Source of the DNA: a virus
Lineage: Duplodnaviria; Heunggongvirae; Uroviricota; Caudoviricetes
IMG/VR virus record: IMGVR_UViG_3300042898_001927
Reading direction: 5' to 3' (one strand)
DNA length: 64,000 bases
Shown: positions 1,379-52,798 of the stretch, in pieces
How positions within the stretch are numbered: the first letter of the stretch is position 1
Layout of the letters: each line of letters starts with the position of its first letter
The notes under the pieces: generated by a model
Told to the model about the DNA's origin: nothing
Database searches by the model: none
Seen by the model: only the letters and a program-made list of their open reading frames with translations
Program-made: the position numbers and the translations under genes

Positions 1379-2176
1379 TCACTTGTTCATCATCAGTGCT
1401 GTGAAGTTGCTTGGCACTACAATAGTCTGTACCTTGCCGTTCTTAATACCTTCGGAGATATTCAGCATGGCCTGTGCTTCCATGAACTTGATAGAACTGG
1501 CGCTGTTATTAGCCAATGCTGCCATACGTCGGCTTTCAGCTTCAGCAGTCTTAACTTCAACTTCCTTCTGCTTCAATTCGTTCTTACTACGAACCAATGC
1601 ATTGGCACTTTCAACAACTGTGTCGCTAGGTACAACATTACGAATCAACACTTGACTAATCATAATAGTACCGTCCAACTTTTCCTCTGCCAAGTTGCGA
1701 ACGATTTCATCCTGGATGAACTTTTCCATTTCGCTACGCTTGTCAGCCATGTCCAATGCTTCGTACTTTCGTGCTGCCTTGTAGATAGCGTTACGAGCAT
1801 TTTGAACAATGTAGTTGTACATCACATAGGTATCACCCTTCATCTCAGCGTGGAACGCCTTGTTCTTGGTACTGTACAATTCTGCCACTTGTTGCGGATT
1901 GATGTTATAAACAACCACAGCATCCAAGTCTTTCATTGTGCTGTTATCAGCAGCCACAGGAGTCATGTCATTCAGCGCAACATTAACGTCCTTGATAGGG
2001 AATGTAAGCACATCACCGATGAATGTTTGGTTGAACGAACCAGGCAGCAACTCACCTGGCTGTACCTGTTTATCAAAACCAACTCGCACACCGACCTCAC
2101 CAGTCTCAATTCGAGTACAAGCACTAGTCAGTGCAACTGCGGCCACGACCAAACCAACTTTAATAAAACGCATCAT
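1379..2176 (-). CDS. SPFH/band-7 (prohibitin/HflC-like) lipoprotein
   Basis: 265 aa. The N-terminus MMRFIKVGLVVAAVALTSAC is a signal peptide with a lipobox Cys. The body is SPFH-like with an alternating charged coiled-coil C-terminus (EVEVKTAEAESRRMAALAN). Confidence 0.75.
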   Translation of the reverse strand: MMRFIKVGLVVAAVALTSACTRIETGEVGVRVGFDKQVQPGELLPGSFNQTFIGDVLTFPIKDVNVALNDMTPVAADNSTMKDLDAVVVYNINPQQVAELYSTKNKAFHAEMKGDTYVMYNYIVQNARNAIYKAARKYEALDMADKRSEMEKFIQDEIVRNLAEEKLDGTIMISQVLIRNVVPSDTVVESANALVRSKNELKQKEVEVKTAEAESRRMAALANNSASSIKFMEAQAMLNISEGIKNGKVQTIVVPSNFTALMMNK

Positions 2177-2272
2177 TTAAATAACTCCAGTAGAAAAAAG
2201 ATAAAAACAAACAACAAAGCCCAATGCAAAATACAAGGGCCTAAGCCAAAAGTCATTGATCATAATGATCCC

Positions 2273-2449
2273 TTAAAAAATTATCACCAATCCAAACATC
2301 AGCGCAATTGCTACTGCTGAACTGATTGTAGCATACACAGCGGCCTTTGTCAAGTCCAGGGCCTGCTTGCCTGAGAGTTTTTGGACTCCAAGAATGCCGC
2401 CCCAGACTAGAGCCGTCAATACCAAAAATAGGAAGATGACTCTGATCAT
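2273..2449 (-). CDS. Small membrane protein (58 aa, below the ORF-track cutoff)
   Basis: Hand translation gives MIRVIFLFLVLTALVWGGILGVQKLSGKQALDLTKAAVYATISSAVAIALMFGLVIIF, two predicted TM helices. It fills the gap between SPFH and rIIB on the same strand. Confidence 0.4.
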   Translation of the reverse strand: MIRVIFLFLVLTALVWGGILGVQKLSGKQALDLTKAAVYATISSAVAIALMFGLVIIF

Positions 2450-2452
2450 ATA

Positions 2453-3514
2453 TTAACCTTTAGTTGGGAAAGGCCAATCACCGCCTTGTGCTTTGAACAC
2501 GGTTCCTGGAGGAGGTGTTACCTTACCATCAGCATTGCGAGTCCAGCCGGTGGGAGTTGGCGGTACATAGCGATAGCGTTCCGGATCACCGTTTTCGCGA
2601 TCTTCCACTCCAGCTTCGTATCCAACGTCATAGGCATTGTGTTCTCTGGAACCATAGTTGTATGAATTGCTATAGTCTGCACCAGAGAAGCCGTCGCTAT
2701 AACCACGCTTATGGATACTTGAACCAACACGCACTTCTGGAACAGGCTTGGCTGCTCGAACAGTTTCGGTACCGTTAGCATTGCCCTGGACTGACTTGTT
2801 AAAAGCCTTGCCTGGTTCCACACCCAACTCACCGATAACTTCGTAGCGGCAAGCACGGCCTTTGGCCCCGTTGTAGTCGCTTGGAATTGATACAACATCG
2901 GCTGGATCAATCTTAACAATAACAGTTCGGCTATCAGTGCCACCAAAGTGATCCAAGTAACTCAAACCGCAGAAGTGTAGGCCAGCGGAACAGGTTTGAT
3001 CCTTGTTGTCATCCACTTGGTTGCGTTCCATTTCAACAACAGTACCTGGACTATTGTCCATAGTACCACTGTGAATGTCTTTGAAGTCACGGCGGACTTT
3101 CTTGTAAGCCAAGAAGTGACCATCGGGAGTGATTGGCAAACTGTTCTTTTCCAAAAAGCCGTAGAGTTCATCAACACTACGCTTGCTAGGGTTCTTCATC
3201 AAGTTATGCATGAACAGAACCATTGGATCAATAGTAAAGCCATCTTGCAACATAGTAATCATACGACTTGCCAACACACCTGCAAAAGGCTGACCCTTCC
3301 AGAACAGTTGTTCGCCCTTGACAGAGATGTTGCCAGCGCCGTAGTTCAGCACAACCTTAACTGGGTCGATAATGTTTTTAACAGTCTCCCAATCGTGTGC
3401 TTTGATAGCATCAACTACCTTTTGGTAAGTGACGTGGGTTTTAGAGATAGTGTGTGGCTTACCCTCGATAACCACGGTGACATTGCTGCCTTGAATAATA
3501 AACGGATAACTCAT
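2453..3514 (-). CDS. rIIB: rIIB-like protein
   Basis: 353 aa. It lies immediately downstream of rIIA with a 1-nt gap, in the T4 gene order. The size and C-terminal region (DNSPG...CSAGLHFC...DVVSIP.DYN.AK.R.C.YEV) are consistent with the rIIB family. Confidence 0.65.
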   Translation of the reverse strand: MSYPFIIQGSNVTVVIEGKPHTISKTHVTYQKVVDAIKAHDWETVKNIIDPVKVVLNYGAGNISVKGEQLFWKGQPFAGVLASRMITMLQDGFTIDPMVLFMHNLMKNPSKRSVDELYGFLEKNSLPITPDGHFLAYKKVRRDFKDIHSGTMDNSPGTVVEMERNQVDDNKDQTCSAGLHFCGLSYLDHFGGTDSRTVIVKIDPADVVSIPSDYNGAKGRACRYEVIGELGVEPGKAFNKSVQGNANGTETVRAAKPVPEVRVGSSIHKRGYSDGFSGADYSNSYNYGSREHNAYDVGYEAGVEDRENGDPERYRYVPPTPTGWTRNADGKVTPPPGTVFKAQGGDWPFPTKG

Positions 3515-3515
3515 T

Positions 3516-5696
3516 TTAGATTCCTTTCTTTGAATCGATCATTGAAACATATTCAGCGATATCGCTCGCTTCAACGCGGTAAGTACTCAAGGACTTCAAC
3601 AACGGGTACCTACGATTTACGTTGTCGAGTTGTGTTTGATATTTCACAATCAATGCATCTGGGCTAAGGTTAGCATTAGGTGCAAACTTGCGGAATAAGT
3701 TCTTCATATTATACTGGTTACCAGTAAATTTGTCAATACCTTTAAACTCCAAAATCAACCTGGCGTAAGGGCTGTTAAGATCGATGTCATTCAACACATC
3801 TTTGGAAAACTCCAGGATGTCTCGATTGTCCAAATTGGCCTTGACCAAACTCATCAATAACTTACTTACATCTTTGCCATTCAATTGGGCAGTAATGTGA
3901 TCTTCGAAATTGACCCAGTTCTTACGCTTCTTGATCTCTTCGATATCGCTCTTACGCACACCATAGATCTCACCGTTGAACAATCCAGGCAATGACTTAA
4001 CGTCCTCATACATTTCTTTGCCGCTTTGGTAGCCTTTAGCACTCTGCATAGTAAAGCCGCAGAGAGGAACATAGTAGTAAGTCTGTGTATCCACAAACTT
4101 GCTGGTATCACCTGCGTCACGCCAAACCATATCTTCATCACTACGACGATAACCACTGCGACTTCCGCGCTTCTCCAACTTAAGGATCGAAATGTTACGA
4201 CCCAAAGTCTCACGCTCACGTTGCTTCAGTGTAGAGGCTGCAAAGCGTCGGGCTAGCGGAGGTTCTTGGATTGCGGCAAAGAAGGCAGCAGTATCCATTA
4301 CTTTGGTCTTGTCAGCCTTGTCCAGAATCCAAATAGCACGGCTATAAACATTACAGCCAGTTTCCTTGTAGTGATAACGAGCACGTTCGGCAGCACCAGT
4401 CTTCAAATCATTGATAATAAAGTGGCTGTCAGCATCAACCTGCACACGCCATTCTTGCCAAGTGATGTAATGTCCATTGGCATTTTTAGCATGACCTGGT
4501 GCATACTCGGTAGTGCTTTTACCATTGGTAACAGTTTTGCTACCGCGATGTTGCGACAACTGTCGAATCACAATGTTGTAGTTGGCGGCCAAGTCTTCAA
4601 CTTTGAAATCAAAGCGAGTCATGTAACCGTACTGTTTGGTATTGTATGTAGGCAGGGCAGTGTCTATGGCATACTGATTTACAGCCGCAGTCCAAAGGCG
4701 GTGTTCTTTCTTCTTGAACAAGAACACAGCACGATCCCACAGGTTCTCGATGGCATCTGACTCTCGAGCAATTACAACTGTCAGGGCCGCATTGAGTTGT
4801 TCCAACTTGGCTTTGATAGCCGCAATAGTTGAAGGAATGTAACTCAAGCCTTCACGTGACGCTTGGAAGTCCAGCTCGCCGATGGCAAAGTGCATTTCCA
4901 AACCACAGCCCAATAATGCTCGTACATCTTGTTCGATGCTTTGATCAGCGGCAGGAATTTCAATAGGGTAAGCAATATTGCCCATAACAGCCACGCTGCC
5001 ACGACGACCTTCGTTTTTGTAACTATGCACACCGGGAATGATGTCACGGCTTTCGTATTCCGGAGTTTCGAATCCAAAGTCGCCGTTGCCCGACACTACT
5101 GGACGCAGAGCAAAGTGGCGATATACTTGACGTGCTTCTTGACGGAACTTGTCAAAGTCATAGCGTTCAGTAACAGCAAACTTGACTTCTACACCTGCCG
5201 GTTCGTCAGTGGCTTCTTCCATCATCTGGGCAATACTAGGCACACCAGCTTCGTTGATGAAAGCAGTGTAGATACCTTTGCGGCCGTTTTGGATAGCAGT
5301 TACTGTGAAGTTGTCAGTGTAACTAAACGGGCTTTTGGATCCCAAACCAAGGGCACCAATGAACTGGTTGCTCGCGGTTTTAGTACTTTCAAAGTAAGTG
5401 GTGTAGATGTTAGTGACTTGTTCGTGCGACAGACCAGTACCATAGTCTCGGATACTGAAGTGCGGTTCCAAGCTGTTTGGAAGATGAACGTCAAAGGGAG
5501 TGTCTTGCTTGCCAGCAGCCGCATGGCTGTCCACAGCGTTGCAACTGAGTTCGCGGATAACTGCTCGGATTTTGTTGGCATAAAGACCTGAGGAAAGAAT
5601 GGAAAACGCTTTGGCTGAGTTGCGAATACGGAATTCGCCAATCTCGCCCACGTTAGAAACAATGGCTTCGTTTTGCGGAGCGTTGTTGAGAATCAT
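3516..5696 (-). CDS. rIIA: rIIA protein (GHKL-ATPase family)
   Basis: 726 aa; T4 rIIA is 725 aa. The N-terminal Bergerat fold is present: N-box IRELSCNAVDSH and G1 box DYGTGLS. It carries the highly conserved rIIA block GALGLGSKSPFSYTDNFTVTA. Confidence 0.9.
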   Translation of the reverse strand: MILNNAPQNEAIVSNVGEIGEFRIRNSAKAFSILSSGLYANKIRAVIRELSCNAVDSHAAAGKQDTPFDVHLPNSLEPHFSIRDYGTGLSHEQVTNIYTTYFESTKTASNQFIGALGLGSKSPFSYTDNFTVTAIQNGRKGIYTAFINEAGVPSIAQMMEEATDEPAGVEVKFAVTERYDFDKFRQEARQVYRHFALRPVVSGNGDFGFETPEYESRDIIPGVHSYKNEGRRGSVAVMGNIAYPIEIPAADQSIEQDVRALLGCGLEMHFAIGELDFQASREGLSYIPSTIAAIKAKLEQLNAALTVVIARESDAIENLWDRAVFLFKKKEHRLWTAAVNQYAIDTALPTYNTKQYGYMTRFDFKVEDLAANYNIVIRQLSQHRGSKTVTNGKSTTEYAPGHAKNANGHYITWQEWRVQVDADSHFIINDLKTGAAERARYHYKETGCNVYSRAIWILDKADKTKVMDTAAFFAAIQEPPLARRFAASTLKQRERETLGRNISILKLEKRGSRSGYRRSDEDMVWRDAGDTSKFVDTQTYYYVPLCGFTMQSAKGYQSGKEMYEDVKSLPGLFNGEIYGVRKSDIEEIKKRKNWVNFEDHITAQLNGKDVSKLLMSLVKANLDNRDILEFSKDVLNDIDLNSPYARLILEFKGIDKFTGNQYNMKNLFRKFAPNANLSPDALIVKYQTQLDNVNRRYPLLKSLSTYRVEASDIAEYVSMIDSKKGI

Positions 5697-5730
5697 TTGG
5701 AACCTTTCAGTAGTGTGTCTGTATGTATAT

Positions 5731-5759
5731 ATTATAACAAGGTTTTACCTATTTGTCAA
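5731..5759 (-). promoter_or_regulatory. Sigma70-consensus early promoter for rIIA
   Basis: Read on the minus strand it is TTGACA (5754-5759), a 17-nt spacer, then TATAAT (5731-5736). The conserved downstream block ATATATACATACAGACACA follows, about 35 nt before the rIIA ATG. Confidence 0.7.
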
Positions 5760-6702
5760 GCTGATCTTGAAAAAGATTTACCACATTTTTAGATTTTTTT
5801 GTTGTTGTTTTTTTCTGTTTCGGTGCAGCATCTGGATTTCTGATTTTTTCCAAAATACCCTGCTCATATTTTTCGTTAGGAGTTGTTTGCACTCCTTCGG
5901 GCAATTGTGTGCTCAATTGTTTGTCAGCTGAAGTTACCGAGGATTCTACAGTTTGATTAATTCTTGTTTCAGCAATCTTGAAATATTCTTCAGTCATTTC
6001 AACACCAATGAAGTTTCTGCCAGTCAATTTGGCACTCACGCCACAACTACCGGATCCCATAGTAAAGTCCATAACAGTATCACCCGGGTTGCTGTATGTC
6101 ATGATCAACCAATTTAGAATATTAGTTGGCTTCTGAGTAGGATGCACTGTTTGCTGTGCAGAGAAATTTCTCGAAGCGTGAAGAATACTTTTTGGATAAC
6201 GAGTACCGTGATTCTCGCCGCCGAGGTATGGCTTTCCGTTGTTTCCAAAACCATATCCGTGACTGTTCTTACCTGTACCGTAGCCTTTTTCTTTGTCCTT
6301 GGCTTCTCGTTTGTAGGCTTCGCCTTCTTCCATAATTGGATTGTATGTGCCGCCACTTTCCTTGCTAAAGATCATAATATTTTCATGAACTTTTTGAGGA
6401 CGATATTTGGCCAAGCCTGGACTGCCGCACTTATTTTTATTCCAAATAAGCTCATGCCTGAACCAATCAATCTTACTGGCAATTACTAAACTGGTAAAAG
6501 GCTGACTACCAAAAATAACTATATTGCCTTTTGGTTTAACAATTCTTTCTAATTCAGCCCACATGGTTTTGAAGTCCAGGGTCTTGTCCCATTCAATGGT
6601 TGTAGTACCATATGGAGGATCGACACAGACCATATCTACTGATTGATCTGGAATCTTTTTAAAAGCTTCAAAGCATTGTTCGTTAAACAGAGTGATATTC
6701 AT
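5749..6702 (-). CDS. DNA amino-methyltransferase (N6-adenine or N4-cytosine), beta-class
   Basis: 317 aa. Motif IV DPPY (VCVDPPYGTT) is near the N-terminus. The AdoMet motif I (VMDFTMGSGSCGV) is near the C-terminus, giving the beta-class permuted order. There is a Lys-rich C-terminal tail. Confidence 0.85.
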   Translation of the reverse strand: MNITLFNEQCFEAFKKIPDQSVDMVCVDPPYGTTTIEWDKTLDFKTMWAELERIVKPKGNIVIFGSQPFTSLVIASKIDWFRHELIWNKNKCGSPGLAKYRPQKVHENIMIFSKESGGTYNPIMEEGEAYKREAKDKEKGYGTGKNSHGYGFGNNGKPYLGGENHGTRYPKSILHASRNFSAQQTVHPTQKPTNILNWLIMTYSNPGDTVMDFTMGSGSCGVSAKLTGRNFIGVEMTEEYFKIAETRINQTVESSVTSADKQLSTQLPEGVQTTPNEKYEQGILEKIRNPDAAPKQKKTTTKKSKNVVNLFQDQLDK

Positions 6703-7379
6703 TTTATATTTACTTTTTTTAGATTAGCTGTGCGGTAAGTAATGGCCTTGTTCCACTGTGCTGCCTTGTCTGCCCAGCATTTGAAAGCCCCGTCTGTAAT
6801 TACATTATAAAAAACATCTTCAAAGGATTGAGTACCTGGTTCGCACCCGTGTTCTTTACCCCACATAATTTGCAAGTTATTTGTTGGGTTTTTACCCCAG
6901 TGTGTAATTTGTTTGACTCCACGAACCATTACATGGCCGAAGTCTTTCTTGTCGAGACTAAGGAACCAATAGTCACGGTCAGTTTCTTTTTTATGCTTAA
7001 TAACTAACTCGGCAAATTTTGCATCGCTGATTTTATTGGCAATTTTAAATTCAGTGTATTGTTTAGCTGTGAGATCTGTCAGTGCCCACAAAATGCCTAG
7101 CTTACTAAATGCGTTGTCAGAACTGCCAATTGATGTTTTGATATTTACAGCATGGGCTGTGCCGTCGTCGTCGATTACTTCAATATCCATGAAGTTTCGG
7201 AGAACACCTTCTTTAATGCGATCTTTAAATTGTGGCTGTTTTTGCAGCCAAGCAATGATCTTATCTTCGTCTTTTTTACTATTGACTCGACCTTCATTGT
7301 TTTCGCTAACTGCTTTAAGATTAGACTTTTTCAGTGCTTCAACAATATCGTTCAAAATTTTTGGTGCTTTTGTATTCAT
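6699..7379 (-). CDS. Hypothetical protein co-transcribed with the MTase (candidate nuclease, unproven)
   Basis: 226 aa. Its stop overlaps the MTase start (ATGA). There is a weak D-x-E...N-I-K stretch (MDIEVIDDDGTAHAVNIK). No confident family could be assigned by eye. Confidence 0.5.
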   Translation of the reverse strand: MNTKAPKILNDIVEALKKSNLKAVSENNEGRVNSKKDEDKIIAWLQKQPQFKDRIKEGVLRNFMDIEVIDDDGTAHAVNIKTSIGSSDNAFSKLGILWALTDLTAKQYTEFKIANKISDAKFAELVIKHKKETDRDYWFLSLDKKDFGHVMVRGVKQITHWGKNPTNNLQIMWGKEHGCEPGTQSFEDVFYNVITDGAFKCWADKAAQWNKAITYRTANLKKVNIK

Positions 7380-12769: not shown

Positions 12770-12800
12770 TTTACCAAAAGAAAAGCACCCGAAGGTGCCA
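12770..12800 (-). terminator. Rho-independent terminator downstream of pstS
   Basis: The hairpin is gcacc-cgaa-ggtgc (12785-12798). On the minus strand it is followed by a T-rich run (plus-strand ccaaaagaaaagc). Confidence 0.55.
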
Positions 12801-12845: not shown

Positions 12846-13850
12846 TTATTTGATTTGTGTCCAAACACGCTCACGGATCTGCTTTGTTAATGCGTCCGGC
12901 AATGCTACATAGTCTAAGTCTGCGGCATCTTTCTTACCATTCTTAAATGCCCAATCAAAGAACTTTAACACTTCATCGCTGTTGGCTTTGTTAGCAGGTG
13001 TCTTATACATGATGATAAAACTTGCTGAACTTACTGGCCATGCATTAGGATTCTTTTGATCCACAATACTTAATCCCATACCAGGAACTGAGAACCAATC
13101 AGCGCCATCTGCAGCCGAGGCAAATGTTAGATCATCTGGGCTAACATACCGGCCACTCTTGTTTTGTAGTTGTAGGAATGTCATGTTGTTTTTCTTAACA
13201 TAAGCATACTCTACATAACCGATTGAACCTTTGATACGGTTCACGTTGGCCGCCACACCTTCGTTGCCTTTGCCACCCACTGAACTAGCAGCCGGCCATT
13301 TGATTGTGGCACCACGACCTGCACGTTGTAACCACTCTGGGCTGACTGTGGCAAGATAGTCTGTCCAGTTGAATGTAGTGCCTGAACCATCAGCACGGTG
13401 TACAACGGTGATTTCTGTGTTTGGCAATACTTTGCCAGGATTCAACGCCGCTAGTTTAGCATCATTCCAACGATTGATCGTGCCCAAGAACACTTCAGCC
13501 ATAACCGGGCCAGTGATGCGTAGCTCACCTGGTTTGAAACCATCCAAATTGATGACAGGCACAGTTCCGCCAATGATAGCAGGGAATTGAACCTGCCCCA
13601 TCTTGTCTAAGTTCTCGCCGCTTACTGGTGCGTCTGTGGCACCAAAGTCAACGGTCTTTGCATTAATTTGACGAATGCCACCGGATGATCCGATGCTTTG
13701 ATAGTTCATACCAGTACCTGTGGCTTTTTTGTAGCCCTCGGCCCACTTGGCATAGATCGGGAATGGGAAGGTAGCACCTGCCCCTGTAATGTCTGCGGCT
13801 TGTGCTGACACTGCTACAGCCGCAAATAGAATAGCAAATAATTTTTTCAC
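12846..13850 (-). CDS. pstS: Phosphate ABC transporter periplasmic substrate-binding protein PstS
   Basis: 334 aa. It has a signal peptide (MKKLFAILFAAVAVSAQA). The mature N-terminus ADITGAGATFPFPIYAKWAEGYK...YQSIGSSGGIRQI matches the PstS family. It has a GTG start with an AAGGAG RBS 7 nt upstream. Confidence 0.9.
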   Translation of the reverse strand: MKKLFAILFAAVAVSAQAADITGAGATFPFPIYAKWAEGYKKATGTGMNYQSIGSSGGIRQINAKTVDFGATDAPVSGENLDKMGQVQFPAIIGGTVPVINLDGFKPGELRITGPVMAEVFLGTINRWNDAKLAALNPGKVLPNTEITVVHRADGSGTTFNWTDYLATVSPEWLQRAGRGATIKWPAASSVGGKGNEGVAANVNRIKGSIGYVEYAYVKKNNMTFLQLQNKSGRYVSPDDLTFASAADGADWFSVPGMGLSIVDQKNPNAWPVSSASFIIMYKTPANKANSDEVLKFFDWAFKNGKKDAADLDYVALPDALTKQIRERVWTQIK

Positions 13851-13899
13851 TGTAAGTCTCCTTGTGTGTTAGTTCTTACATTAATATTTAAACACAGAA

Positions 13900-13920
13900 T
13901 GATTACAATATGATTACAAT
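13900..13920 (-). promoter_or_regulatory. Pho-box-like tandem direct repeat upstream of pstS
   Basis: On the plus strand it reads tgattacaat-a-tgattacaat, a perfect 10-nt direct repeat with an 11-nt period. On the minus strand it is TTGTAATCATATTGTAATCA. It lies about 10 nt upstream of a -10-like TAAATATTAAT and 50-70 nt before the start. The architecture is that of the E. coli Pho box CTGTCATAAAACTGTCA. Confidence 0.6.
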
Positions 13921-13945
13921 TTTAAGAAATTTTAGCCAAACTAGA

Positions 13946-14668
13946 TTAATTCCAATAACGGTTGTGATCCGTTTGATGCCAGTATGACTGATTATTGCGA
14001 TTGATAAAATTTTTCACTAGATATTTTGCCATACCAAAATATCCCATCTTCTTGAATCTGCGACTATCCTGTCCAAAATAGTGAGGCACAATCTTAAACT
14101 TTTTAGGGCTGTATTGTTTTGACAAGAAGTAATCTTCTGATGTTAAACAATGTTCAGGGAATCCGCCAAATTCTTCAAAACGATCTCTGCGTGTTAGCAT
14201 AAATGCACCTACGGCAAATGGTGAGAAGTGTTTTAAAATTTTATTAGTTATATTAAATGCTGCAAATCCGACAGATGCTCGCTTGTCACGATCATAACAT
14301 TTAATGTTCAGTCCAACAAGATCCAGATCGTTGGCTTCTAATTCATCGACAGCATCACGTATTACAGTGGATTTAAAAAAACGAACATCTGCATCAATGA
14401 ACAGGATGTAGGGAGTAGTGACTAGTCGTGCGCCGCAATTTTTAGCAACAGACACCGGACCACCGTCAATAATTTCTACATTCAAATTGCCTTTCATTAT
14501 TTCGATAACTTCTCTAGTTTTGTCTGTTGAACAATCTGCAATGATGATTCTAGTATTGCCTATCATTTGCTGACGTAAATGCATTAATAGATGTGCTATA
14601 TAGTTTTCCTCATTCTTACAAGGTACAACAATAGTGATTGCATCGCTGAGTTTTATTGTTTTCTGCAT
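13946..14668 (-). CDS. Family-2 glycosyltransferase (GT-A fold)
   Basis: 240 aa. The N-terminal block ITIVVPCKNEENYIAHLL and the DXD motif (LFIDADV) are present. It is separated from the upstream phosphoesterase gene by 21 nt containing an AAGGTAGAAGGA RBS. Confidence 0.8.
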   Translation of the reverse strand: MQKTIKLSDAITIVVPCKNEENYIAHLLMHLRQQMIGNTRIIIADCSTDKTREVIEIMKGNLNVEIIDGGPVSVAKNCGARLVTTPYILFIDADVRFFKSTVIRDAVDELEANDLDLVGLNIKCYDRDKRASVGFAAFNITNKILKHFSPFAVGAFMLTRRDRFEEFGGFPEHCLTSEDYFLSKQYSPKKFKIVPHYFGQDSRRFKKMGYFGMAKYLVKNFINRNNQSYWHQTDHNRYWN

Positions 14669-14689
14669 TGTCCTTCTACCTTAAAATTA

Positions 14690-15571
14690 TCAAACTTTAG
14701 TTGATATGACATCGTCTTGAGAACCGATTCGCACGATGTCTGGTCCGGGAACGTCAGTGTTATTCTTCCTGGGATGTCGTTTGGATTTTTTGAATGAATC
14801 GCTAGTAGTAACATTATCCACATCATCTCGCTCCTTAGTCCAAGTAACAATCTCCCAACGACCGTCCCAATGCTCAACTAAAGCTGTGCATGATTCAACC
14901 CAGTCGCCGTCATTCATATACATTACACCGTCTATCTCTTTTATTTCTGCGTGATGTATGTGTCCGCATATGACTCCATCAAAGCCACGTTTCTTACAGT
15001 AGCCTGCAAGATTCTTTTCAAACTGAAACATAAAATCTACTGCTCGTTTGACTTTGTATTTGAGATACTGACTTAAACTCCAATAACCAAATCCCATTTT
15101 GTGACGAACCCAGTTAAACTTACCGTTTAGGTATAAGACAAAGTCGTAGGCCTTGTCACCTAAAAAACCCAACCACGGTGCCAGGCGGGTAATGCCGTCA
15201 AACAGGTCGCCGTGTGTGACTAGATAGTGTTTGCCGTCAGCACCTATATGTTCTATTTGATTGTGTATCTCTACCAATCCAAAACTAAAACCATAAGGTA
15301 TCATTGGTCTTAAAAACTCATCGTGATTGCCTGCAATATAAACAACTCTAGTACCACGTTTGGCGTGACCTAGCACACGACGAACTACATTGGTATGACT
15401 CTGCTTCCACCGCCATTTGTTTTGTTGTATGCGCCAAGCGTCTATTATGTCACCTACTAGATAGAGTGTATCGCAGGTGTTGTGTTTGAGGAAGTTGTTT
15501 AACTTATCCGCTTGACTGTCTTTGGTTCCAAGATGCACATCACTGACAAAGATTGAGCGGTATGTCTTCAT
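14690..15571 (-). CDS. LpxH/PlcP-like calcineurin-type metallophosphoesterase
   Basis: 293 aa. The metallophosphoesterase motifs are present in order: DVHLG, GDIIDAW, GNHDE, THGD and GHIHH. The overall layout is as in the LpxH (UDP-2,3-diacylglucosamine hydrolase) / PlcP (phospholipase C) family. Confidence 0.8.
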   Translation of the reverse strand: MKTYRSIFVSDVHLGTKDSQADKLNNFLKHNTCDTLYLVGDIIDAWRIQQNKWRWKQSHTNVVRRVLGHAKRGTRVVYIAGNHDEFLRPMIPYGFSFGLVEIHNQIEHIGADGKHYLVTHGDLFDGITRLAPWLGFLGDKAYDFVLYLNGKFNWVRHKMGFGYWSLSQYLKYKVKRAVDFMFQFEKNLAGYCKKRGFDGVICGHIHHAEIKEIDGVMYMNDGDWVESCTALVEHWDGRWEIVTWTKERDDVDNVTTSDSFKKSKRHPRKNNTDVPGPDIVRIGSQDDVISTKV

Positions 15572-15591
15572 ACTATTATTTACGGAATATT

Positions 15592-15612
15592 CGATTACAG
15601 TATGATTACAGA
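15592..15612 (-). promoter_or_regulatory. Pho-box-like tandem direct repeat upstream of the phosphoesterase-GT operon
   Basis: On the plus strand it reads gattacag-tat-gattacag, an 8-nt direct repeat with an 11-nt period. On the minus strand it is CTGTAATCATACTGTAATCG. It is followed by GTAAATAAT (-10-like), then the ATG about 20-40 nt downstream. It is near-identical to the pstS box including flanks. Confidence 0.6.
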
Positions 15613-15613
15613 G

Positions 15614-15652
15614 TCAAAAAGAAACCCGCCGAAGCGGGTCCTGTTATTTTCT
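15614..15652 (-). terminator. Hairpin terminator/insulator upstream of the Pho-box promoter
   Basis: An A-run, then the hairpin acccgc-cgaa-gcgggt, then the T-rich run cctgttattttctgtt. It looks bidirectional. Confidence 0.5.
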
Positions 15653-16019
15653 GTTACGAGGTATAACTACCCTAAGCAGTGTTTAGGCTGCTAATGCGAA
15701 CTGTGAGTCGTTTGCGGTTACTTTGTTTTGCTTCTGCGACCGGGAATCCCCAATCCTAACGGCTTCTACATTGCCGGACTGTCCATTTCAATACTTGTGA
15801 CCCAATCGATATCTATGTCATCCCCACCTAAATATACATCATATACTTAGGTGGAGATGCCGGGAACTGCCCCCGGGTCTTGAATCCTTTTCTGTCTACT
15901 TCATACAGTCTTAACTTTTAACAGACTTCCCAGGGTGTGTTTGGCCTCTGCTAAGCCTGTAGGAATCTCACCTACTGCATATCTGCTACGCAAACTTGCC
16001 CCTGCGAAAGCAATTGTAT

Positions 16020-16217
16020 TTAATTAATACGAGTATAGTTCAGTACATTGCCTGAACCATATTGGGATTCGGCAATCATTTTGGCCTGCAGATCATCGTT
16101 AGCGTTTACGCGAACATGTGCAGTTTGATATTGATTGAGACGGATCCAAACTTCGTATGTGTACATTTTAAACTTTCTTTGTCGATCGAATATTTTGAGC
16201 CTGCTTACCTTTGTCAC
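16020..16217 (-). CDS. Small hypothetical protein
   Basis: The ORF-track ORF overlaps the csp 3' end by 50 nt. The real start is probably the internal Met at 16166 ([12 protein letters not shown]..., 48 aa). Confidence 0.25.
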
Positions 16218-16377
16218 CCTCAGCTAGATCAAATTCAACTTCTTGTCCAACTGCTAGTGTCCTGTACCCTTCCATTTGGATCTGACTAAAATGTGCAAAC
16301 ACATCATCAGTTGTGCCATCTGGAACGATAAATCCAAAACCTTTTGAATTATTAAACCATTTAACTTTTCCCTGCAT
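16168..16377 (-). CDS. cspA: Cold-shock protein (CspA family)
   Basis: 69 aa. It carries the RNP1 motif KGFGFI, the RNP2-like VFAHFS, and the N-terminal [15 protein letters not shown]. Confidence 0.9.
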
Positions 16378-17606: not shown

Positions 17607-18050
17607 TTATTCCTTATCTTCTTCTTTAGGTATTTCGCATAGTGCTTCTAGAGTTTTATAATGCTGGTATGCTTTCCGGAGTGCCTCGAAGTGTTCTAAC
17701 TTGGCAGGATCCGGAGTTAGGATAGCTAGACGCTTTTCAATGGTGGTCAGCATATCTCCAAGACTACGGCCCTTCCATTTGATATCCCCTTCGAATATTG
17801 CATCTGTACTAACATGCAGGCCCGTGCTCGAAATGTTTCCTACTGTGTTACTAGTTGAGAAAACATAAGGGTTAGTGCTCCATGTTCCGTTTGCGCCTGC
17901 GCTTACAAAATAGGACCCTGCAGAGCCTGTGGCACCAATGGAGTAGTTATTCATTGAGTTGCTAATATCAATTGATATAGTGTCATTGATCAGTGACTCA
18001 TCGGATAAATCATCTACAAAGATGGTTAGATCGTCATCGGTGTTAGCCAT
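17607..18050 (-). CDS. Hypothetical protein
   Basis: ORF track, 147 aa. It has an acidic N-terminus. Confidence 0.5.
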   Translation of the reverse strand: MANTDDDLTIFVDDLSDESLINDTISIDISNSMNNYSIGATGSAGSYFVSAGANGTWSTNPYVFSTSNTVGNISSTGLHVSTDAIFEGDIKWKGRSLGDMLTTIEKRLAILTPDPAKLEHFEALRKAYQHYKTLEALCEIPKEEDKE

Positions 18051-18267
18051 TTAACTTAGCCTTTAGTTCAGTAAAGCCGCCGATCAGTTCTCCATCTAAA
18101 AAGATCTGAGGAACTGTACGAGCGGTAGGTACAGCTTCTAATAATTCTTCTTTGGTGTAACCGTCACCAATTTTCTTTTCTTCAAAGGCAATGCCTTTCT
18201 GTTTCAATAATGCCTTTGCTTGATCGCAGTAAGGGCAATGGTACTTAGACCATACAATCGCGTTCAT
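18043..18267 (-). CDS. grx: Glutaredoxin (NrdC/NrdH-like redoxin)
   Basis: 74 aa. The CPYC active site is in VWSKYHCPYCDQAK. The C-terminal TVPQIFLDGELIGG is the glutaredoxin signature. Confidence 0.85.
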   Translation of the reverse strand: MNAIVWSKYHCPYCDQAKALLKQKGIAFEEKKIGDGYTKEELLEAVPTARTVPQIFLDGELIGGFTELKAKLNG

Positions 18268-18278
18268 TTTATTTCCTT

Positions 18279-19379
18279 TTATAGATCTGGTAATTCTTCG
18301 TACTCAACTGCATCGCTCATAACGCCGATGACGTAGTTTGTACTTTCATTTTCTTGTAGAGCAGTCTGCTTCTTGTTGATATTAACATGTTTGTTGAACC
18401 AAGGAATAGGACTAAATTTAGGATGCTCCCCTTGGTACTTAATACCAATTTCCTTTAAACGTGTAAATGCAGTATAATCGACAAAGTCGCTAAGGATGGC
18501 AGCATTAAGTCCGATAACTGGACCTAACTTAAACAAGTAGGTTGCCCATTCTTTCTCTTCACGGATAACATCCATGTACATTGCATACACTTCTTCAGCA
18601 CATTCATCGACGATGGCTGCAAATCTAGGATCGTCTTTGACTACATTGTTGATTAGCCAAGCAGTCCATTCTGCGTGTAGTAACTCATCTTGTAAAATCA
18701 AACTGATGATGTTGCCATTGCCAATGTAGATCTTGTTCTCGACCATTGCCAACGATGTAGCAAAGGATACCATAAAGCGGAATGCTTCGAGGGCATAGCT
18801 GGCGTTCAAGGCTAACCAGATAGCCTTGATGTGTTCATGCTCGCTAATTTCCTCACCGACTTCCTTGCGGCAATTAATTCGATGTAGTGTTTCGTAGTAC
18901 ATACCGACACTACTGGCCATACTTACGATTGGCTCGATGTCATGAATCTTGTTAAATTCTTCTTTAGGTACGCCATAGACATTACGAATAATGTGACTGT
19001 AAGATTTTGAGTGAATATTTGTTTCAAAGAAACTCCAATTAGATACTAGTGCTTCTAGTTCCGGGATTGAGATAACAGGACTGAATACCTGATTAGGTGC
19101 TCGTCCTTGAATACTGTCCAAGGCTGTTTGACGCAGTAGGTTGCTGGTAAAGATATGTTTTACTGCATCGCTAGATTCTTTATGATCCATTTTGTCTTTG
19201 GTAAGACTGATTTCTTCTGGGACCCAAAAGAAGCCACGTGCTAGTTCTTCATACTTGGCAATCTTAGGATACTTAACTTCTTCAAATCGTTGCACAGTGA
19301 CAGGACCAGCAGGATCTAAAAACATTTTTCGTTTTAGATAGTTTGTTTGCTTACTTAAATTATATTGTTCTTTACTCAT
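18279..19379 (-). CDS. nrdB: Ribonucleotide reductase class Ia small subunit
   Basis: 366 aa. It is ferritin-like with di-iron ligands (FFWVPEE...; paired EXXH helices) and has the C-terminal acidic tail used for docking R1. Confidence 0.9.
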   Translation of the reverse strand: MSKEQYNLSKQTNYLKRKMFLDPAGPVTVQRFEEVKYPKIAKYEELARGFFWVPEEISLTKDKMDHKESSDAVKHIFTSNLLRQTALDSIQGRAPNQVFSPVISIPELEALVSNWSFFETNIHSKSYSHIIRNVYGVPKEEFNKIHDIEPIVSMASSVGMYYETLHRINCRKEVGEEISEHEHIKAIWLALNASYALEAFRFMVSFATSLAMVENKIYIGNGNIISLILQDELLHAEWTAWLINNVVKDDPRFAAIVDECAEEVYAMYMDVIREEKEWATYLFKLGPVIGLNAAILSDFVDYTAFTRLKEIGIKYQGEHPKFSPIPWFNKHVNINKKQTALQENESTNYVIGVMSDAVEYEELPDL

Positions 19380-19758
19380 TTGTGTGTTTCTTTCTATAGT
19401 CTTCTACTGCGGCTTTAATTGCATCTTCGGCTAGAATACTGCAATGTATCTTAACTGGGGGCAATGCTAGTTCTTCAGCAATTTGGCTATTACGAATGTG
19501 ACTAGCATCATCCACATGCATTCCTTTAACCATCTCAGTGACAAGACTGGAGCTGGCGATTGCTGAACCACATCCATATGTCTTGAAACGAGCATCTCTA
19601 ATAATACCATTTTCATCTACCTTTATCTGTAGTTTCATTACATCACCGCAGGCAGGGGCACCGACCATTCCAGTACCTACTCCTTCTTCGTCTTTAGCAA
19701 AGCTACCTACGTTACGAGGATTCTCATAGTGGTCAATAACTTTATCTGAATAGGCCAT
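19372..19758 (-). CDS. iscU: IscU/NifU-type Fe-S cluster scaffold protein
   Basis: 128 aa. The three conserved Cys are present (GAPACGDVMKL, KTYGCGSAIASS, HCSILAEDAIKAA). The LPPVK motif is also present. The gene overlaps nrdA and nrdB at both ends. Confidence 0.85.
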   Translation of the reverse strand: MAYSDKVIDHYENPRNVGSFAKDEEGVGTGMVGAPACGDVMKLQIKVDENGIIRDARFKTYGCGSAIASSSLVTEMVKGMHVDDASHIRNSQIAEELALPPVKIHCSILAEDAIKAAVEDYRKKHTNE

Positions 19759-22118
19759 TATAGTTTACATGCCTCGCAGTCGGCATCGTCGTACAGAGTT
19801 ACATTATCAACAGCATTAACATATGATGGAGGAGCAACTACTAATGTATTGGTAGTTGTTACACCTTCCTTAGCGCCGACTTTGTTAATTAAGCTATAGT
19901 ATATAGTCTTGATACCCCATTTGTAAGCCAGCATTAAGTTTTTGGCAATTAAAGTTCCGGGGACCTTGCGATCCTTTTGTGGATCTAAACTGGTAAAGTG
20001 TGCAGGATTGTAGAATGTGTTAGTGCTCAAACTTTGATCAATGTAGGCTGCAAGTACTGCGGCAGTTTTCAAATAATCAACACAGTCCTTTTGATCCCAC
20101 ATCAACTGATAACGATTCTTTAGACGTTTGTATTCTGGTACTACCTGTACAAAAGACCCTGCCTTGGATTCCTTAACACTGATAAGTTCCATCGGCATTT
20201 CAATACCGTTGGTACTGTTAAGCACGACCGAACTAGATTCAACTGGAGCAACTGCCATTAAGGTAGCGTTACGAATACCATACTTTTTCATCATCGCACG
20301 TAGAGGTTCCCAATCCATGCTTGGTGTAAAGTCTGTTAGTTCATCTACTCCTTTATTTCTACGCTCCCAAGGAAACACTCCCTTACCATAATAAGTATGC
20401 TGACTACGTCCGCATGGCCCACGTTCTTGGGCAAGCTCGACACTTGTTTCAGTTAGGTAGTATGCTTGATGTTCCATCCAACGTTTGACTTCGGCAAGAG
20501 CATCCTTCTCGCCGTATTTAAAACTACGCTTGGCATGCCAGTAGGCCAAGTTAGTAATGCCAACACCTAACGGTTCAAATTCACTATTGGCCATCTTTGA
20601 CTGTACGCTTAAGAAATCTTGATATGATAACAAGTTACTCAAGCTACGGACCAACACACGGCAGGCTTTACGCATCTCTTGCGGATTGCGGAACGCACCC
20701 CAGTTGATTGACCCAAGAGTGCAAAGAGCAATTCGTCCCTCTGCATCTTCAATTCTCTGGAAAGGACGGGTGGGTAAAAGTATCTCTTGGCATAGGTTTG
20801 ATTGATATATTGGATCCAAGGTTGTATCAAACGGGCCCTGGTTGATAACGTTGTCGATGTTGACAAAATATATGCGCCCAGTGTCAGTGCGCTCTTTAAG
20901 TATTCCAGCTTTGAATATCGCATCCGCTGATACAACTTTCTTTTTCTTTGTCTTATCTTGCTCATACTGTAGATACAATTTTTCAAACAGGCCGCTATCA
21001 CGATAGTAGGCTTCGTACAAGTCCGGAACTTCTGCAGGGTCAAACAAGCTCATCATTTCGCCATTCTTATAGCGGTTCCAGAACATCTTGCTGACTACTA
21101 CTGAATAGTCCATTTGACGCACACGAGTTTCTTCAGTACCTTGGTTGTTCTTTAGAACAATAAGATCTTCGAACTGATAATGCCAGACGGGAAAAGTCAC
21201 CGTACAACTTGCATTACGGATTCCACCTTGGCTGCAACTGCGAAGGTCTGCGAACCACTTTTTCAAGAAAGGGATCATTCCAGTATGCTTGATCTCACCG
21301 TTGCGAATTGGTGCACCTAACGGTCTGATTCTGCCTATTTCAAGGCCGATTCCGGCTCGTTTTGAAGCATATTTGGCCATCATTTCGCCTGCTGCGAAGA
21401 TACTATCCAGTGTGTCATCACTGCTGATCAATACACATGAACTGAATTGTTTTGTTGTGGTTCCTAGGCCGGCGAGAACAGGTGTAGCTAATGTGAAGTG
21501 TCCGTCACTAGCTGACTCGTAGTATTCCTTAACCCACTTTAATCTTTTATCTTTAGGTTCGTTATGAAACGCTGTTGCTGCGGCAATTGCATAGCGAACC
21601 TGAGGTGTTTCGTAGATTTGACCAGTAGCACGGTTCTGTACCAGATACTTTTCTGCTAACTGTGCAATGGCTGCATAGGTATAGTTTTCATCCTTGGCAT
21701 GATCGATGAATAGATCAATGATATCCCATTCTTCTTTAGAGTACCAGTCTAGCAGTTCGCTAGTGTACATGCCTAGATCTACATTCTTTTTAACAATATC
21801 ATACAATGCTGGAGGATCATAATCACCATAGACCTCTTTGCGTAACATGCTAACTTTTTGACGACCTGCTACATACTGATAATTGACATTATTAATTTCT
21901 GGATTTTCAGATTCGTCAATTAAATCTACCATGGCCTTGAGCAAGAGCTCGTCTATGGTTTCGGTAGTCATACCGTCGTGGAGTTCAATTTGAGCTTTAA
22001 TCTCAATCATCGAAGGACTTACTCCATCGATACCCCTGCAGCCGTAAGCTACTTGTCTCTGTATTTTTGCGATATCTAACGGAACGCGATGTCCATTACG
22101 CTTGACCACTGTGATCAT
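19758..22118 (-). CDS. nrdA: Ribonucleotide reductase class Ia large subunit
   Basis: 786 aa. The N-terminal ATP-cone is VVKRNGHRVPLDIAKIQ. The catalytic region and the C-terminal CEAC (CX2C) shuttle pair are present. Confidence 0.95.
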   Translation of the reverse strand: MITVVKRNGHRVPLDIAKIQRQVAYGCRGIDGVSPSMIEIKAQIELHDGMTTETIDELLLKAMVDLIDESENPEINNVNYQYVAGRQKVSMLRKEVYGDYDPPALYDIVKKNVDLGMYTSELLDWYSKEEWDIIDLFIDHAKDENYTYAAIAQLAEKYLVQNRATGQIYETPQVRYAIAAATAFHNEPKDKRLKWVKEYYESASDGHFTLATPVLAGLGTTTKQFSSCVLISSDDTLDSIFAAGEMMAKYASKRAGIGLEIGRIRPLGAPIRNGEIKHTGMIPFLKKWFADLRSCSQGGIRNASCTVTFPVWHYQFEDLIVLKNNQGTEETRVRQMDYSVVVSKMFWNRYKNGEMMSLFDPAEVPDLYEAYYRDSGLFEKLYLQYEQDKTKKKKVVSADAIFKAGILKERTDTGRIYFVNIDNVINQGPFDTTLDPIYQSNLCQEILLPTRPFQRIEDAEGRIALCTLGSINWGAFRNPQEMRKACRVLVRSLSNLLSYQDFLSVQSKMANSEFEPLGVGITNLAYWHAKRSFKYGEKDALAEVKRWMEHQAYYLTETSVELAQERGPCGRSQHTYYGKGVFPWERRNKGVDELTDFTPSMDWEPLRAMMKKYGIRNATLMAVAPVESSSVVLNSTNGIEMPMELISVKESKAGSFVQVVPEYKRLKNRYQLMWDQKDCVDYLKTAAVLAAYIDQSLSTNTFYNPAHFTSLDPQKDRKVPGTLIAKNLMLAYKWGIKTIYYSLINKVGAKEGVTTTNTLVVAPPSYVNAVDNVTLYDDADCEACKL

Positions 22119-25070: not shown

Positions 25071-25409
25071 TCAAATATCTGGCGATAATTTCTTAGCATT
25101 TCTAGATGCCATTGCATCTAATGCTGGAGAGCCTGCGGGCTCTTGTGGTTGATTTGGATTTGCTTCCCCTGTGTTAAGGATAACATTTCCTTGATCATCG
25201 ATATCTTGGATAACATCGCCTGCTGGATCAACAGCGTTTTTGAGTGCAATCAATCCGTCTGGAGTGTTAATGCCTAGATTATAGGGTTGTAACAATTTCA
25301 TTACAACAGGGAAAGGCAAGGTAGAGGATTGTTGTTCTCTATTAGCTTGCCCTTGTAAGACTGCTAGAACATCTCTAGCAGATCCTAAATCTACTTCAAA
25401 TAATCTCAT
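25071..25409 (-). CDS. Hypothetical protein
   Basis: ORF track, 112 aa. Its stop overlaps the next gene's start. Confidence 0.45.
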   Translation of the reverse strand: MRLFEVDLGSARDVLAVLQGQANREQQSSTLPFPVVMKLLQPYNLGINTPDGLIALKNAVDPAGDVIQDIDDQGNVILNTGEANPNQPQEPAGSPALDAMASRNAKKLSPDI

Positions 25410-34000: not shown

Positions 34001-34409
34001 TTAGGTTATCACCTAGACAAAATGTGTCATGCATCCACAATACACGCATACGTGCTCTACTGATAATCCTATCATAAAGATTCATAGGAGCGAACGGTGT
34101 GCTCCTATAGTCATTTAATTTTGGATAGTCTGCAGGGTCAGTAAATGGGATGATTGTGCGTGAGCTGATAACAATATCAAACTCGTGATCCTGTGCTAGA
34201 TCTGTAAGTGGGCGATATGTTACTTGATCGTATGTGCCCGGCAGTGCATGGTCAATATTACAGTTATTGAAAACTGTAACATCAAACCCAATTTGAGCAA
34301 GTTCTCTGCTCATTAGGATAACAGCACTTTCGCTGCCACCCAAGCCCTGTTTGAAAACGGTTGTACCGTCATATGGAATACCAATAATGTCTATAATAGC
34401 TAGTTTCAT
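31041..34409 (-). CDS. Four-domain glycan-modifying enzyme: GT4-like + GT2 + second GT-A + FkbM-family methyltransferase
   Basis: 1122 aa. The GT4-type EX7E motif is ETYGISSMESLCYNTPIV. The GT2 block is VVVSTFYNCANYI...ILVDDASTDNT...ILDGDDS. A second DXD domain is FSVDSDISF. The C-terminal FkbM MTase motif is MIKMDVQGAELDVLRGA. Confidence 0.8.
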   Translation of the reverse strand: MKLAIIDIIGIPYDGTTVFKQGLGGSESAVILMSRELAQIGFDVTVFNNCNIDHALPGTYDQVTYRPLTDLAQDHEFDIVISSRTIIPFTDPADYPKLNDYRSTPFAPMNLYDRIISRARMRVLWMHDTFCLGDNLIEELAIADRITDIFTLSDFHLTYVANCDHGKRRNFEVLKRKMFITRNGVRIYNREVDIAAKDKNLFVYNASVTKGMIPLVKLIWPHIKRHIPEARLKVIGGYYRFSTGSEPDQQEKDWRAMAADPQLAAQGIEFTGVISQKEIADILTQANFMLYPAAFPETYGISSMESLCYNTPIVTCRFGALEEIAVAGACYLIDYAIEPNGLFPNINVPHQIEQFVKTAVEAYRNPYLHQQKQYYCNIVKDIAGWDSVALQWKQHFYKRTGCYLRRDDYRAVSKINHRLHKIYNRKFHNTVELEDYKPGTEQPIVVVSTFYNCANYITRCIDSIAAQDYDNYRCILVDDASTDNTLEALYVALSHYPADIRNKFEVIENQNNVGAVKNQIDAFRSIQDPDAIVMILDGDDSLVNDNTVFSYYNNVYDGTTEFSYGSCWSMVDNIPLISQPYPEHVKNSKEYRNHHFNWILPYTHLRTFKKHLIDELDDSLFQDETGAWYKAGGDGSIFYALIESANPARVKCLQDIVYNYNDVNPLNDYKVNAIEQNVAAKSIIKKMNPSKKKILIAIPTARNIEPETFKSIYDLIIPEGYEATFQYFYGYNIDQVRNLIADWVVKGYDYLFSVDSDISFPPNTLLKLLAHDKDVVSGLYIQRKPGLHILEIYEHTAQGGVTNMPYEKLKGRSLVEIAGCGFGCALVKAEVMREIGYPQFKYYSAVDHRHTVSEDVDFCRKALDRGFKIWADPSVLCSHTGSFTFNVDTAIPALPDAKPFSIQDRLRELGSQRLIPRDHVDYLAKLKNQGFEPKVIYDIGACVLHWTNEAQRIWDRAEYVVFEAMDSSEFLFKERGLKYHMGVLSDESGKEVDFYQNDVHPGGNSYYKENEEVNPETVNYFNESHRRRLKTVTLDAVRRLKNFPAPDMIKMDVQGAELDVLRGAVETLSTVKHVILELQVVEYNKGAPLKDAVIAYMDTQGFDCLGIFSNNGPDGDYHFVRR

Positions 34410-52790: not shown

Positions 52791-52798
52791 TATTTATA
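52791..52798 (-). promoter_or_regulatory. T4-type late promoter (TATAAATA)
   Basis: On the minus strand it reads ACTATAAATATTG, about 21 nt upstream of the ATG at 52770. Confidence 0.6.

Follow-up and report, generated by a model that had tools for sequence, protein, structure and literature searches.

The 64,000-nucleotide (nt) stretch of DNA analysed here, called the window, comes from IMG/VR virus record IMGVR_UViG_3300042898_001927 (Caudoviricetes) and carries, between positions 12846 and 15652 of its minus strand, genes for a metallophosphoesterase (MPE), a glycosyltransferase of family GT2 and the phosphate-binding protein PstS, arranged in two units that are each preceded by a candidate Pho box. 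We consider it likely that the two promoters and their genes form a mobile phosphate-starvation module borne by the phage, combining a Pho-regulated PlcP and a glycosyltransferase, which renovate membrane lipids, with PstS. The locus has a defined anatomy, its boxes are conserved and specific for a few genes, and the MPE is obligatorily paired with a glycosyltransferase. A preliminary description of the locus had proposed a lipid-renovation pair wired to the Pho regulon, and this proposal is supported by the specificity of the boxes, by the match of the MPE to a profile of agt-linked enzymes and by the constant presence of a glycosyltransferase partner.

The two promoters and their conservation

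The MPE open reading frame (ORF; 14690-15571, minus strand; 293 amino acids (aa)) opens the first unit and is followed by the GT2 ORF (13946-14668, minus strand; 240 aa), which starts 21 nt past the MPE stop codon and has a Shine-Dalgarno sequence of its own. The second unit is pstS (12846-13850, minus strand; 334 aa), whose product carries the N-terminal signal peptide MKKLFAILFAAVAVSAQA/AD. Candidate Pho box 1 (15593-15611, minus strand) reads CTGTAAT-CATA-CTGTAAT(C), i.e. CTGTAATCATACTGTAATC, and lies upstream of the MPE gene, and candidate Pho box 2 (13901-13919, minus strand) reads TTGTAAT-CATA-TTGTAAT(C), i.e. TTGTAATCATATTGTAATC, and lies upstream of pstS. Each box consists of two direct 7-nt half-sites separated by a 4-nt gap. 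The tandem repeats reported for both sites in the preliminary description are thus real, although they comprise 19 nt instead of 21 nt and their coordinates had been off by 1-2 nt. Their likeness to a PhoB box stands as well, given the 11-bp period, the 4-nt gap and half-sites that agree with CTGTCAT at six of seven positions; CTGTCAT half-sites and the 7+4 spacing are those of the consensus quoted in PMC8528852. A third, weaker half-site, CTGTGTT (13891-13897, minus strand), continues the 11-bp register of box 2, and a comparable one exists in relatives such as locus L015.

The two boxes are the only matches to the repeat in 64 kb when up to three mismatches are allowed, with 0.11 matches being expected and none of 100 shuffled sequences yielding two. 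Scanning with the degenerate pattern [CT]TGT[AC]A[CT]-N4-[CT]TGT[AC]A[CT] returned the same two sites as the only exact matches in the window (shuffle mean 0.04). A box-like site with one mismatch, TTGTAATGAAATTGTTAC, is found at 25289-25306 (minus strand); we rejected it as an additional box as it lies inside an ORF (25071-25409) and 1.6 sites of this kind are expected by chance.

As noted in the preliminary description, both repeats are followed by a -10-like element. This is TAAATA in either case, located 11 nt past the 18-nt core of the box (15577-15582 for the MPE promoter, 13885-13890 for the pstS promoter; both minus strand), so that two 7-nt repeats with a 4-nt gap occupy the place of the -35 element, as in a Pho-box promoter. 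Promoter prediction gave no sigma-70 -35/-10 pair ahead of either unit. Translation of the MPE could begin no earlier than at its ATG, which follows TAAATA after 5 nt and is not preceded by a Shine-Dalgarno sequence, indicating that the MPE mRNA is probably leaderless. Downstream of TAAATA in the pstS promoter, the leader comprises about 34 nt and contains the Shine-Dalgarno sequence AAGGAG (13858-13863, minus strand).

Scanning IMG/VR identified at least 592 contigs, 4 kb to 525 kb in length and many of them larger than 200 kb, that encode an MPE of the window type at 78-92% identity, and thousands of metagenome proteins of this type exist besides these contigs. The locus counts given here for relatives rest on the best 80 loci (619 kb, both strands) of these contigs. 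The exact box pattern occurs 59 times in the 80 loci, 36 times before an MPE gene, 14 times before pstS and six times before one unknown gene encoding a protein of about 216 aa, with the other three boxes falling into the same classes. With two copies in the window, and nearly all exact boxes of the 80 loci located before these three genes, the repeat is not a sequence that precedes many unrelated genes, a concern that had been raised in the preliminary description. The unknown gene is present in a number of relatives (L017:3198-3845; also L018, L038, L067, L068, L080 and others) and codes for a protein of 215-219 aa that is rich in Ala, Val and Glu and has no Pfam domain. One or two exact Pho boxes are located some 80-90 nt upstream of it, and the window has no homologue. 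We regard it as a third candidate for a phosphate-regulated phage gene.

We also surveyed the promoters in a sample of 61 distinct MPE-upstream sequences. A box with at most one deviation together with TAAATA is present in 44 of them, TAAATA with a degraded distal half-site in ten, and neither element in the remaining seven, five of which lie directly behind pstS in an apparent pstS-MPE-glycosyltransferase operon. TAAATA is thus kept in 54 of the 61 relatives, 4-8 nt before the MPE ATG (mode 5), and box and TAAATA are separated by 11 nt or by one additional helical turn. The promoters of the 13 related pstS genes all have a box, an 11-nt spacer, TAAATA and then a Shine-Dalgarno-bearing leader. 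The half-sites differ by lineage, being TGTAAT, TGTAAC or TGTCAC/T. As the promoters are kept while their flanks differ widely between loci, we conclude that the promoter travels with the cassette and is under selection.

The product of pstS is a genuine PstS, with a signal peptide and with scores above the cut-offs of the equivalog models NF008171 (391.7 bits; cut-off 339) and TIGR00975 (362 bits; cut-off 205). The protein is of the proteobacterial type, being 51% identical to enterobacterial PstS and 37-39% identical to cyanophage PstS. In 13 of the 80 related loci pstS adjoins the cassette, on either side.

The metallophosphoesterase and its glycosyltransferase partner

The MPE matches the Pfam family Metallophos with 43 bits, and its motifs D11xH13, G40D41, G81N82H83D84, H120 and G203H204xH206 are invariant in an alignment of 41 sequences. 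Database pipelines label the protein 'LpxH'. Its scores against the LpxH equivalog models are far below the cut-offs, however, with 44.1 bits for NF003743 (cut-off 134) and 31.9 bits for TIGR01854 (cut-off 190.35), and only residues 5-123 align. In BLASTP the identity to Escherichia coli LpxH is 23% and confined to the N-terminal 120 residues, and LpxH sequences from the PDB match the MPE at E values of about 1e-3. The AGNHDEF segment of the MPE aligns to HGNRDFL of Klebsiella pneumoniae and E. coli LpxH, so that the MPE has GNHD where LpxH has GNRD, the Arg of which contacts the phosphate of lipid X. For comparison we used a PlcP-type profile built from 52 bacterial MPEs whose genes immediately precede one for an Agt-like GT4 (plcP-agt operons). 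On this profile the window MPE scores 378.6 bits, its homologue from Pelagibacter phage Mosig EXVC030M 348 bits, that from Synechococcus phage S-SRM01 190 bits, and E. coli LpxH 36.2 bits. The phosphoesterase thus stands apart from LpxH, a separation on which the preliminary description had made its proposal depend.

An AlphaFold2 model of the MPE (predicted local distance difference test score 83) comprises an MPE core, a two-helix cap (residues 121-194) and a disordered, basic tail (residues 255-293). The seven best PDB matches of the model are all LpxH, several with bound lipid X, suggesting that the substrate of the MPE is a lipid. The MPE is therefore LpxH-like and lipid-directed, yet it is not LpxH.

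Across 185,579 species genomes, the best bacterial homologues of the MPE reach only 48-59% identity and belong to Alpha-, Beta- and Gammaproteobacteria, among them Limnohabitans, Pseudomonas and Azospirillum. A GT4 gene follows the homologue immediately in 52 of the 80 closest loci; other neighbours are ppk, another GT4 or, in one locus, a DUF3419 gene, which we take to be BtaA-like. The strict Pho-box pattern is rare before these bacterial homologues, whose genomes are mostly GC-rich (eight of 80 at up to one mismatch), a frequency nevertheless about 30-fold above background; no hint as to the host of the phage came from these loci. The MPE belongs to the clade of agt-linked bacterial MPEs. 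Neighbourhood types like those found here have been described for plcP (Sebastián et al., PMC4796936; Jones et al., PMC8528852), and published PlcP trees take LpxH as outgroup.

The protein encoded behind the MPE has a GT-A fold and matches Pfam Glycos_transf_2 (PF00535) with 68.4 bits. It also matches Glyco_transf_21 (PF13506), which we take to be the family that contains the Pgt glycolipid synthases, with 30.8 bits, above the cut-off of 21.7 and below the PF00535 score. Its motifs DAD (residues 92-94) and TSED (residues 176-179) are invariant among relatives. A tblastn search with GT2 against cultured phages yielded weak Staphylococcus matches only.

Pairing of the MPE with a glycosyltransferase is constant. 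In 78 of the 80 phage loci, i.e. all that include downstream sequence, the MPE gene is followed after about 24 nt by a gene for either GT2 (59 loci) or an Agt-like GT4 (19 loci). The position of GT2 21 nt behind the phosphoesterase, as given in the preliminary description, was confirmed, whereas the Agt-type partner that it had brought into the comparison is not what the window encodes, this being a GT2 and not a GT4. The GT4 of the relatives comprises 330 aa and is 37-44% identical to the GT4s behind bacterial plcP. It bears, for example in L002, the UDP-sugar motifs of the Agt clade in the form xRVxxEKN and FPSxxxTFG, the published forms being GRVAxEKN and FPSxTDTFG (PMC8231724). Both types of partner are interspersed among MPEs that are more than 90% identical, and an unbootstrapped neighbour-joining tree requires at least 14 parsimony changes between them. 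This mutual displacement of GT2 and GT4 in one fixed slot suggests that both probably do the same job, and we take it as good evidence that both would consume the diacylglycerol (DAG) made by PlcP. On the basis of this swap we propose that GT2 is a DAG glycosyltransferase.

Proposed function and alternative explanations

In the mechanism that we propose each promoter would consist of a Pho box in place of the -35 element, followed after 11 nt by TAAATA. In a phosphate-starved host, phosphorylated PhoB would bind both direct half-sites and turn on both units. The first unit would yield a leaderless mRNA encoding a cytoplasmic, Mn-dependent phospholipase C of the PlcP type, which would cut the phosphorylated head group off host membrane phospholipids, thereby providing phosphorus for phage DNA and leaving DAG. 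The co-transcribed glycosyltransferase would then add a sugar to DAG, producing a phosphorus-free glycolipid with which the membrane could hold until lysis. From the second unit, extra PstS would increase phosphate capture via the PstCAB transporter of the host. Any benefit of the module to the phage would lie in phosphorus supply.

Several points weigh against this interpretation. The link of the MPE to PlcP is one of synteny and of descriptions in the literature. The half-sites contain TGTAAT instead of TGTCAT, the consensus being that of E. coli, which may not be that of the host. TAAATA coincides with the core of NATAAATA, a sequence found upstream of at least seven other genes of the window, and it may be read by sigma-70 together with PhoB, by a late sigma factor of the phage, or by the two alike, a late factor being the case that would count against us; with either promoter geometry, transcription would start at the A of the MPE ATG or at a neighbouring base. 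As to the glycosyltransferase, it resembles in fold generic GT-A enzymes of the PDB, for instance TarP, TarS and PcManGT, it is not an Agt, being a GT-A enzyme of family GT2 while Agt is a GT-B enzyme of family GT4, and it is found next to the MPE gene in none of the 80 closest bacterial plcP loci, so that the PlcP-GT2 pairing is phage-specific within the sample compared.

The label 'LpxH' leads to a different explanation, namely that the MPE is LpxH-like in function or acts on another lipid-linked pyrophosphate and, together with the glycosyltransferase, constitutes an envelope-modification cassette that alters lipid A, lipopolysaccharide (LPS) or a surface glycoconjugate, for instance to block superinfection. 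Phage 'lpxH' genes are usually read in this way, and LPS modification is also the role given to an 'lpxH' auxiliary metabolic gene in one phage paper. The naming by the pipelines, the LpxH structures that head the fold matches, the weak N-terminal match to LpxH models and a weak PHROG match of GT2 to GtrB-like O-antigen conversion are in line with it. Yet we judge envelope modification very unlikely, as the MPE reaches about one third of the LpxH cut-off of NF003743, aligns with these models in its N-terminal part only, has GNHD instead of GNRD and scores ten-fold higher than LpxH on the agt-linked profile. Moreover, the alternative partner is an Agt-like GT4, and both Pho-box control and the neighbouring pstS speak for phosphorus economy and not for a masking of receptors.

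The phosphorus genes could also be expressed by the infection programme and not in response to phosphate, if the repeats were no PhoB sites but bound a phage regulator or formed the upstream part of phage-specific promoters of the late, gp55 type. This would be consistent with the A that the half-sites have where the E. coli consensus has C, and with TAAATA, which is kept in 54 of the 61 related promoters and is identical to the six bases at the 3' end of TATAAATA, the T4-type late promoter. TAAATA is located upstream of 17 of the 63 window genes, and several of these sites lie 17-37 nt ahead of structural genes and form the complete T4-type late promoter, TATAAATA or NATAAATA, so that the phage appears to use T4-type late promoters. 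However, to our knowledge T4-type late promoters need no upstream element, and the repeats occur only before phosphorus-related genes and not before the other TAAATA sites. The base preceding TAAATA is not conserved in the Pho-box promoters (G for the MPE and T for pstS in the window), whereas it is A in the clear late promoters, and by this variability the Pho-box promoters differ from the latter. As, in addition, the geometry of an 18-nt box, 10-11 nt and a hexamer is that of PhoB-dependent promoters, and lineages with TGTCAC or TGTCAT half-sites exist, we regard expression independent of PhoB as improbable.

Finally, the MPE could be a PlcP and GT2 nevertheless use an acceptor other than DAG, such as the released head group or polyprenol phosphate, in which case phosphorus would be scavenged without membrane renovation. 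The generic fold matches of GT2, which include polyprenol-phosphate and phosphoglycerate glycosyltransferases, leave room for this, as does its absence beside the 80 closest bacterial plcP genes, and the glycoglycerolipid synthase families treated in reviews are GT4, GT21 and GT28, not GT2. On the other hand, GT2 swaps with the Agt-like GT4 in the same slot, with the same spacing and next to near-identical MPEs, and its match to Glyco_transf_21 is above threshold. DAG glycosyltransferases of family GT2 exist as well, namely Mycoplasma MG517 and cyanobacterial MgdA. We therefore consider a different acceptor rather unlikely. A more far-reaching version of the lipid-renovation module is tentative and, in our view, rather doubtful as a whole: Pho box, TAAATA, leaderless plcP and glycosyltransferase gene might form a self-contained mobile unit that has spread among unrelated phages, including jumbo phages, GT2 might represent a new, phage-specific family of inverting DAG glycosyltransferases that replaces Agt, and TAAATA might be the core of a phage late promoter, so that the promoter would join control by host PhoB with phage late timing.

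The phage, related systems and implications

Nearly all genes of the window are on the minus strand, and its GC content is about 0.42. It encodes rIIA, rIIB, endonuclease VII, a gp5-like baseplate hub lysozyme, NrdA, NrdB, glutaredoxin and many tail-fibre proteins, and is a fragment of a phage genome. BLAST with the locus and 25 kb of the window revealed no relatives at the DNA level among 50,697 phage records; the best match of rIIA, with about 30% identity, is to PA5oct-like jumbo phages. Several JGI metagenomes contain the same phage. On the minus strand NATAAATA, often as the full T4 late consensus TATAAATA, is found for example at 52796, 48297, 40214, 28585, 26742 and 24331, and ATAAATA occurs 12 times on this strand, eight times within 60 nt upstream of a start codon.

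Upstream of the first unit lies a gene for a permuted (two-piece) transfer-messenger RNA (tmRNA) of the betaproteobacterial type (15620-15946, minus strand; Rfam RF04321, 107 bits; RF01850, 92 bits), the tag frame of which we read by eye as ANDSQFALAA*. ARAGORN reported neither tRNA nor tmRNA in the window, the permuted tmRNA having been identified with Rfam. The type of this tmRNA may hint at a betaproteobacterial host. The gene ends in an intrinsic terminator (15622-15641, minus strand; GGACCCGC-TTCG-GCGGGTTT and a T-run), and tmRNA gene and terminator end directly upstream of Pho box 1, with the terminator abutting the box and shielding the MPE promoter from read-through. The hairpin also precedes the box in relatives L004, L005, L030, L042 and L043. 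A further intrinsic terminator is located past pstS (12784-12799, minus strand), and no terminator was found between the GT2 gene and pstS.

Further host-like auxiliary genes surround the locus. A CspA-like cold-shock gene (16168-16377, minus strand) adjoins the tmRNA gene, and the genes for glutaredoxin, NrdB and NrdA are located at 18043-22118 (minus strand). Among tail-fibre-like genes, a protein of 1122 aa (31041-34409, minus strand) has PHROG matches to a glycosyltransferase (residues 215-398) and to a methyltransferase (residues 978-1083). A defence-system reading was rejected as PADLOC gave no credible match. In relative L002, a 378-kb metagenome contig that is otherwise full of small phage-like ORFs, CsgF-like, CsgG-like, FecR-like and curlin-repeat genes (1859-7236) are found just upstream of the MPE-GT4 pair.

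The closest known counterpart of the cassette is the bacterial PlcP-Agt operon, members of which are Sinorhizobium meliloti SMc00171, Phaeobacter MED193_17359, SAR11 HTCC7211 PB7211_983/960 and Pseudomonas aeruginosa PA3219-PA3218. In both, a Pho box precedes the gene for an LpxH-related Mn metallophosphoesterase (Mn dependence being predicted for the window MPE), and that for a glycosyltransferase comes directly after it. It is in operons of this kind that the nearest bacterial relatives of the window MPE are encoded, and their 48-59% identity to it is within the range seen among characterised PlcPs (51% for OB3b versus HTCC7211). In contrast to these operons, the cassette of the window resides in a lytic, T4-like or jumbo phage, its MPE belongs to a viral clade (78-96% identity within) that shares no more than 59% identity with any match in bacterial genomes and has a disordered, basic C-terminal tail of roughly 47 aa, the partner is a GT2 of 240 aa instead of a GT4, and the mRNA is predicted to be leaderless. 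With LpxH the MPE shares the fold with a helical lipid-binding cap, the metal-binding motifs and the database label, but it remains under the family cut-offs, carries GNHD instead of GNRD and has a C-terminal half that does not align. In some bacteria plcP is followed by a gene for a processive glycolipid synthase of the Pgt type (GT21; Devers et al. 2011, as given in PMC4796936). Like Pgt, the window GT2 is a GT-A type glycosyltransferase, encoded directly behind the putative plcP. Its Glyco_transf_21 match lies above the threshold; it is set apart by the family scores, Glycos_transf_2 being its best family (68 versus 31 bits), and by its small size of 240 aa.

Among phages, auxiliary pstS and phoA genes of cyanophages were reportedly found by Zeng and Chisholm in 2012 to be under the control of host PhoR/PhoB. 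These genes and the module of the window have in common that phosphorus-acquisition genes are tied to the starvation regulon of the host, as predicted for the window, and pstS is present in both. Unlike the cyanophage genes, the window belongs to a phage whose host is not a cyanobacterium, PstS is of the proteobacterial type, the box is of the proteobacterial 7+4 type, and the lipid-remodelling pair is added. Pelagibacter phage Mosig and Synechococcus phage S-SRM01 encode homologous MPEs (49% and 36% identity, respectively) that are labelled 'UDP-2,3-diacylglucosamine hydrolase', and in Mosig the MPE gene adjoins pstS as well, yet in neither phage does a glycosyltransferase gene follow. In Mosig (L001, 3851-4000) pstS and the MPE gene are divergent, with TTTAACA-AAAA-CTTAACA between them; this sequence has an 11-bp period and could be a SAR11-type Pho box. 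The genome papers of Mosig and S-SRM01 do not mention the MPE gene.

The preliminary description held that such a module had not been described in phages, which stands insofar as no account of PlcP or of a lipid-renovation cassette in a phage was found in the open-access literature searched, although the gene itself is abundant in databases under the name LpxH. PlcP-Agt chemistry and its Pho-box control are known from bacteria, and host-PhoB-controlled pstS is known from cyanophages; what appears to be new is that a phage is the carrier, that the partner is a GT2 and that the promoter has a predicted leaderless architecture. Nor is the cassette rare, as it is encoded on at least 592 IMG/VR contigs and is present in part in Mosig, a cultured SAR11 phage. 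It offers a candidate for a new family of glycolipid synthases and a compact, conserved candidate for a phosphate-responsive leaderless promoter.

If the module functions as proposed, auxiliary-gene catalogues that file this MPE under LPS biosynthesis as 'lpxH' could be affected. The same could hold for studies in which plcP serves as a biomarker of phosphorus limitation, as part of the plcP reads would be viral, and for glycolipid-to-phospholipid ratios as proxies of phosphorus stress. Phage phosphorus genes have so far been genes for uptake and scavenging (pstS, phoA, phoH). Membrane-lipid renovation would be a new route, by which a phage would mine the phospholipids of its host for the phosphorus to build DNA under phosphate limitation.

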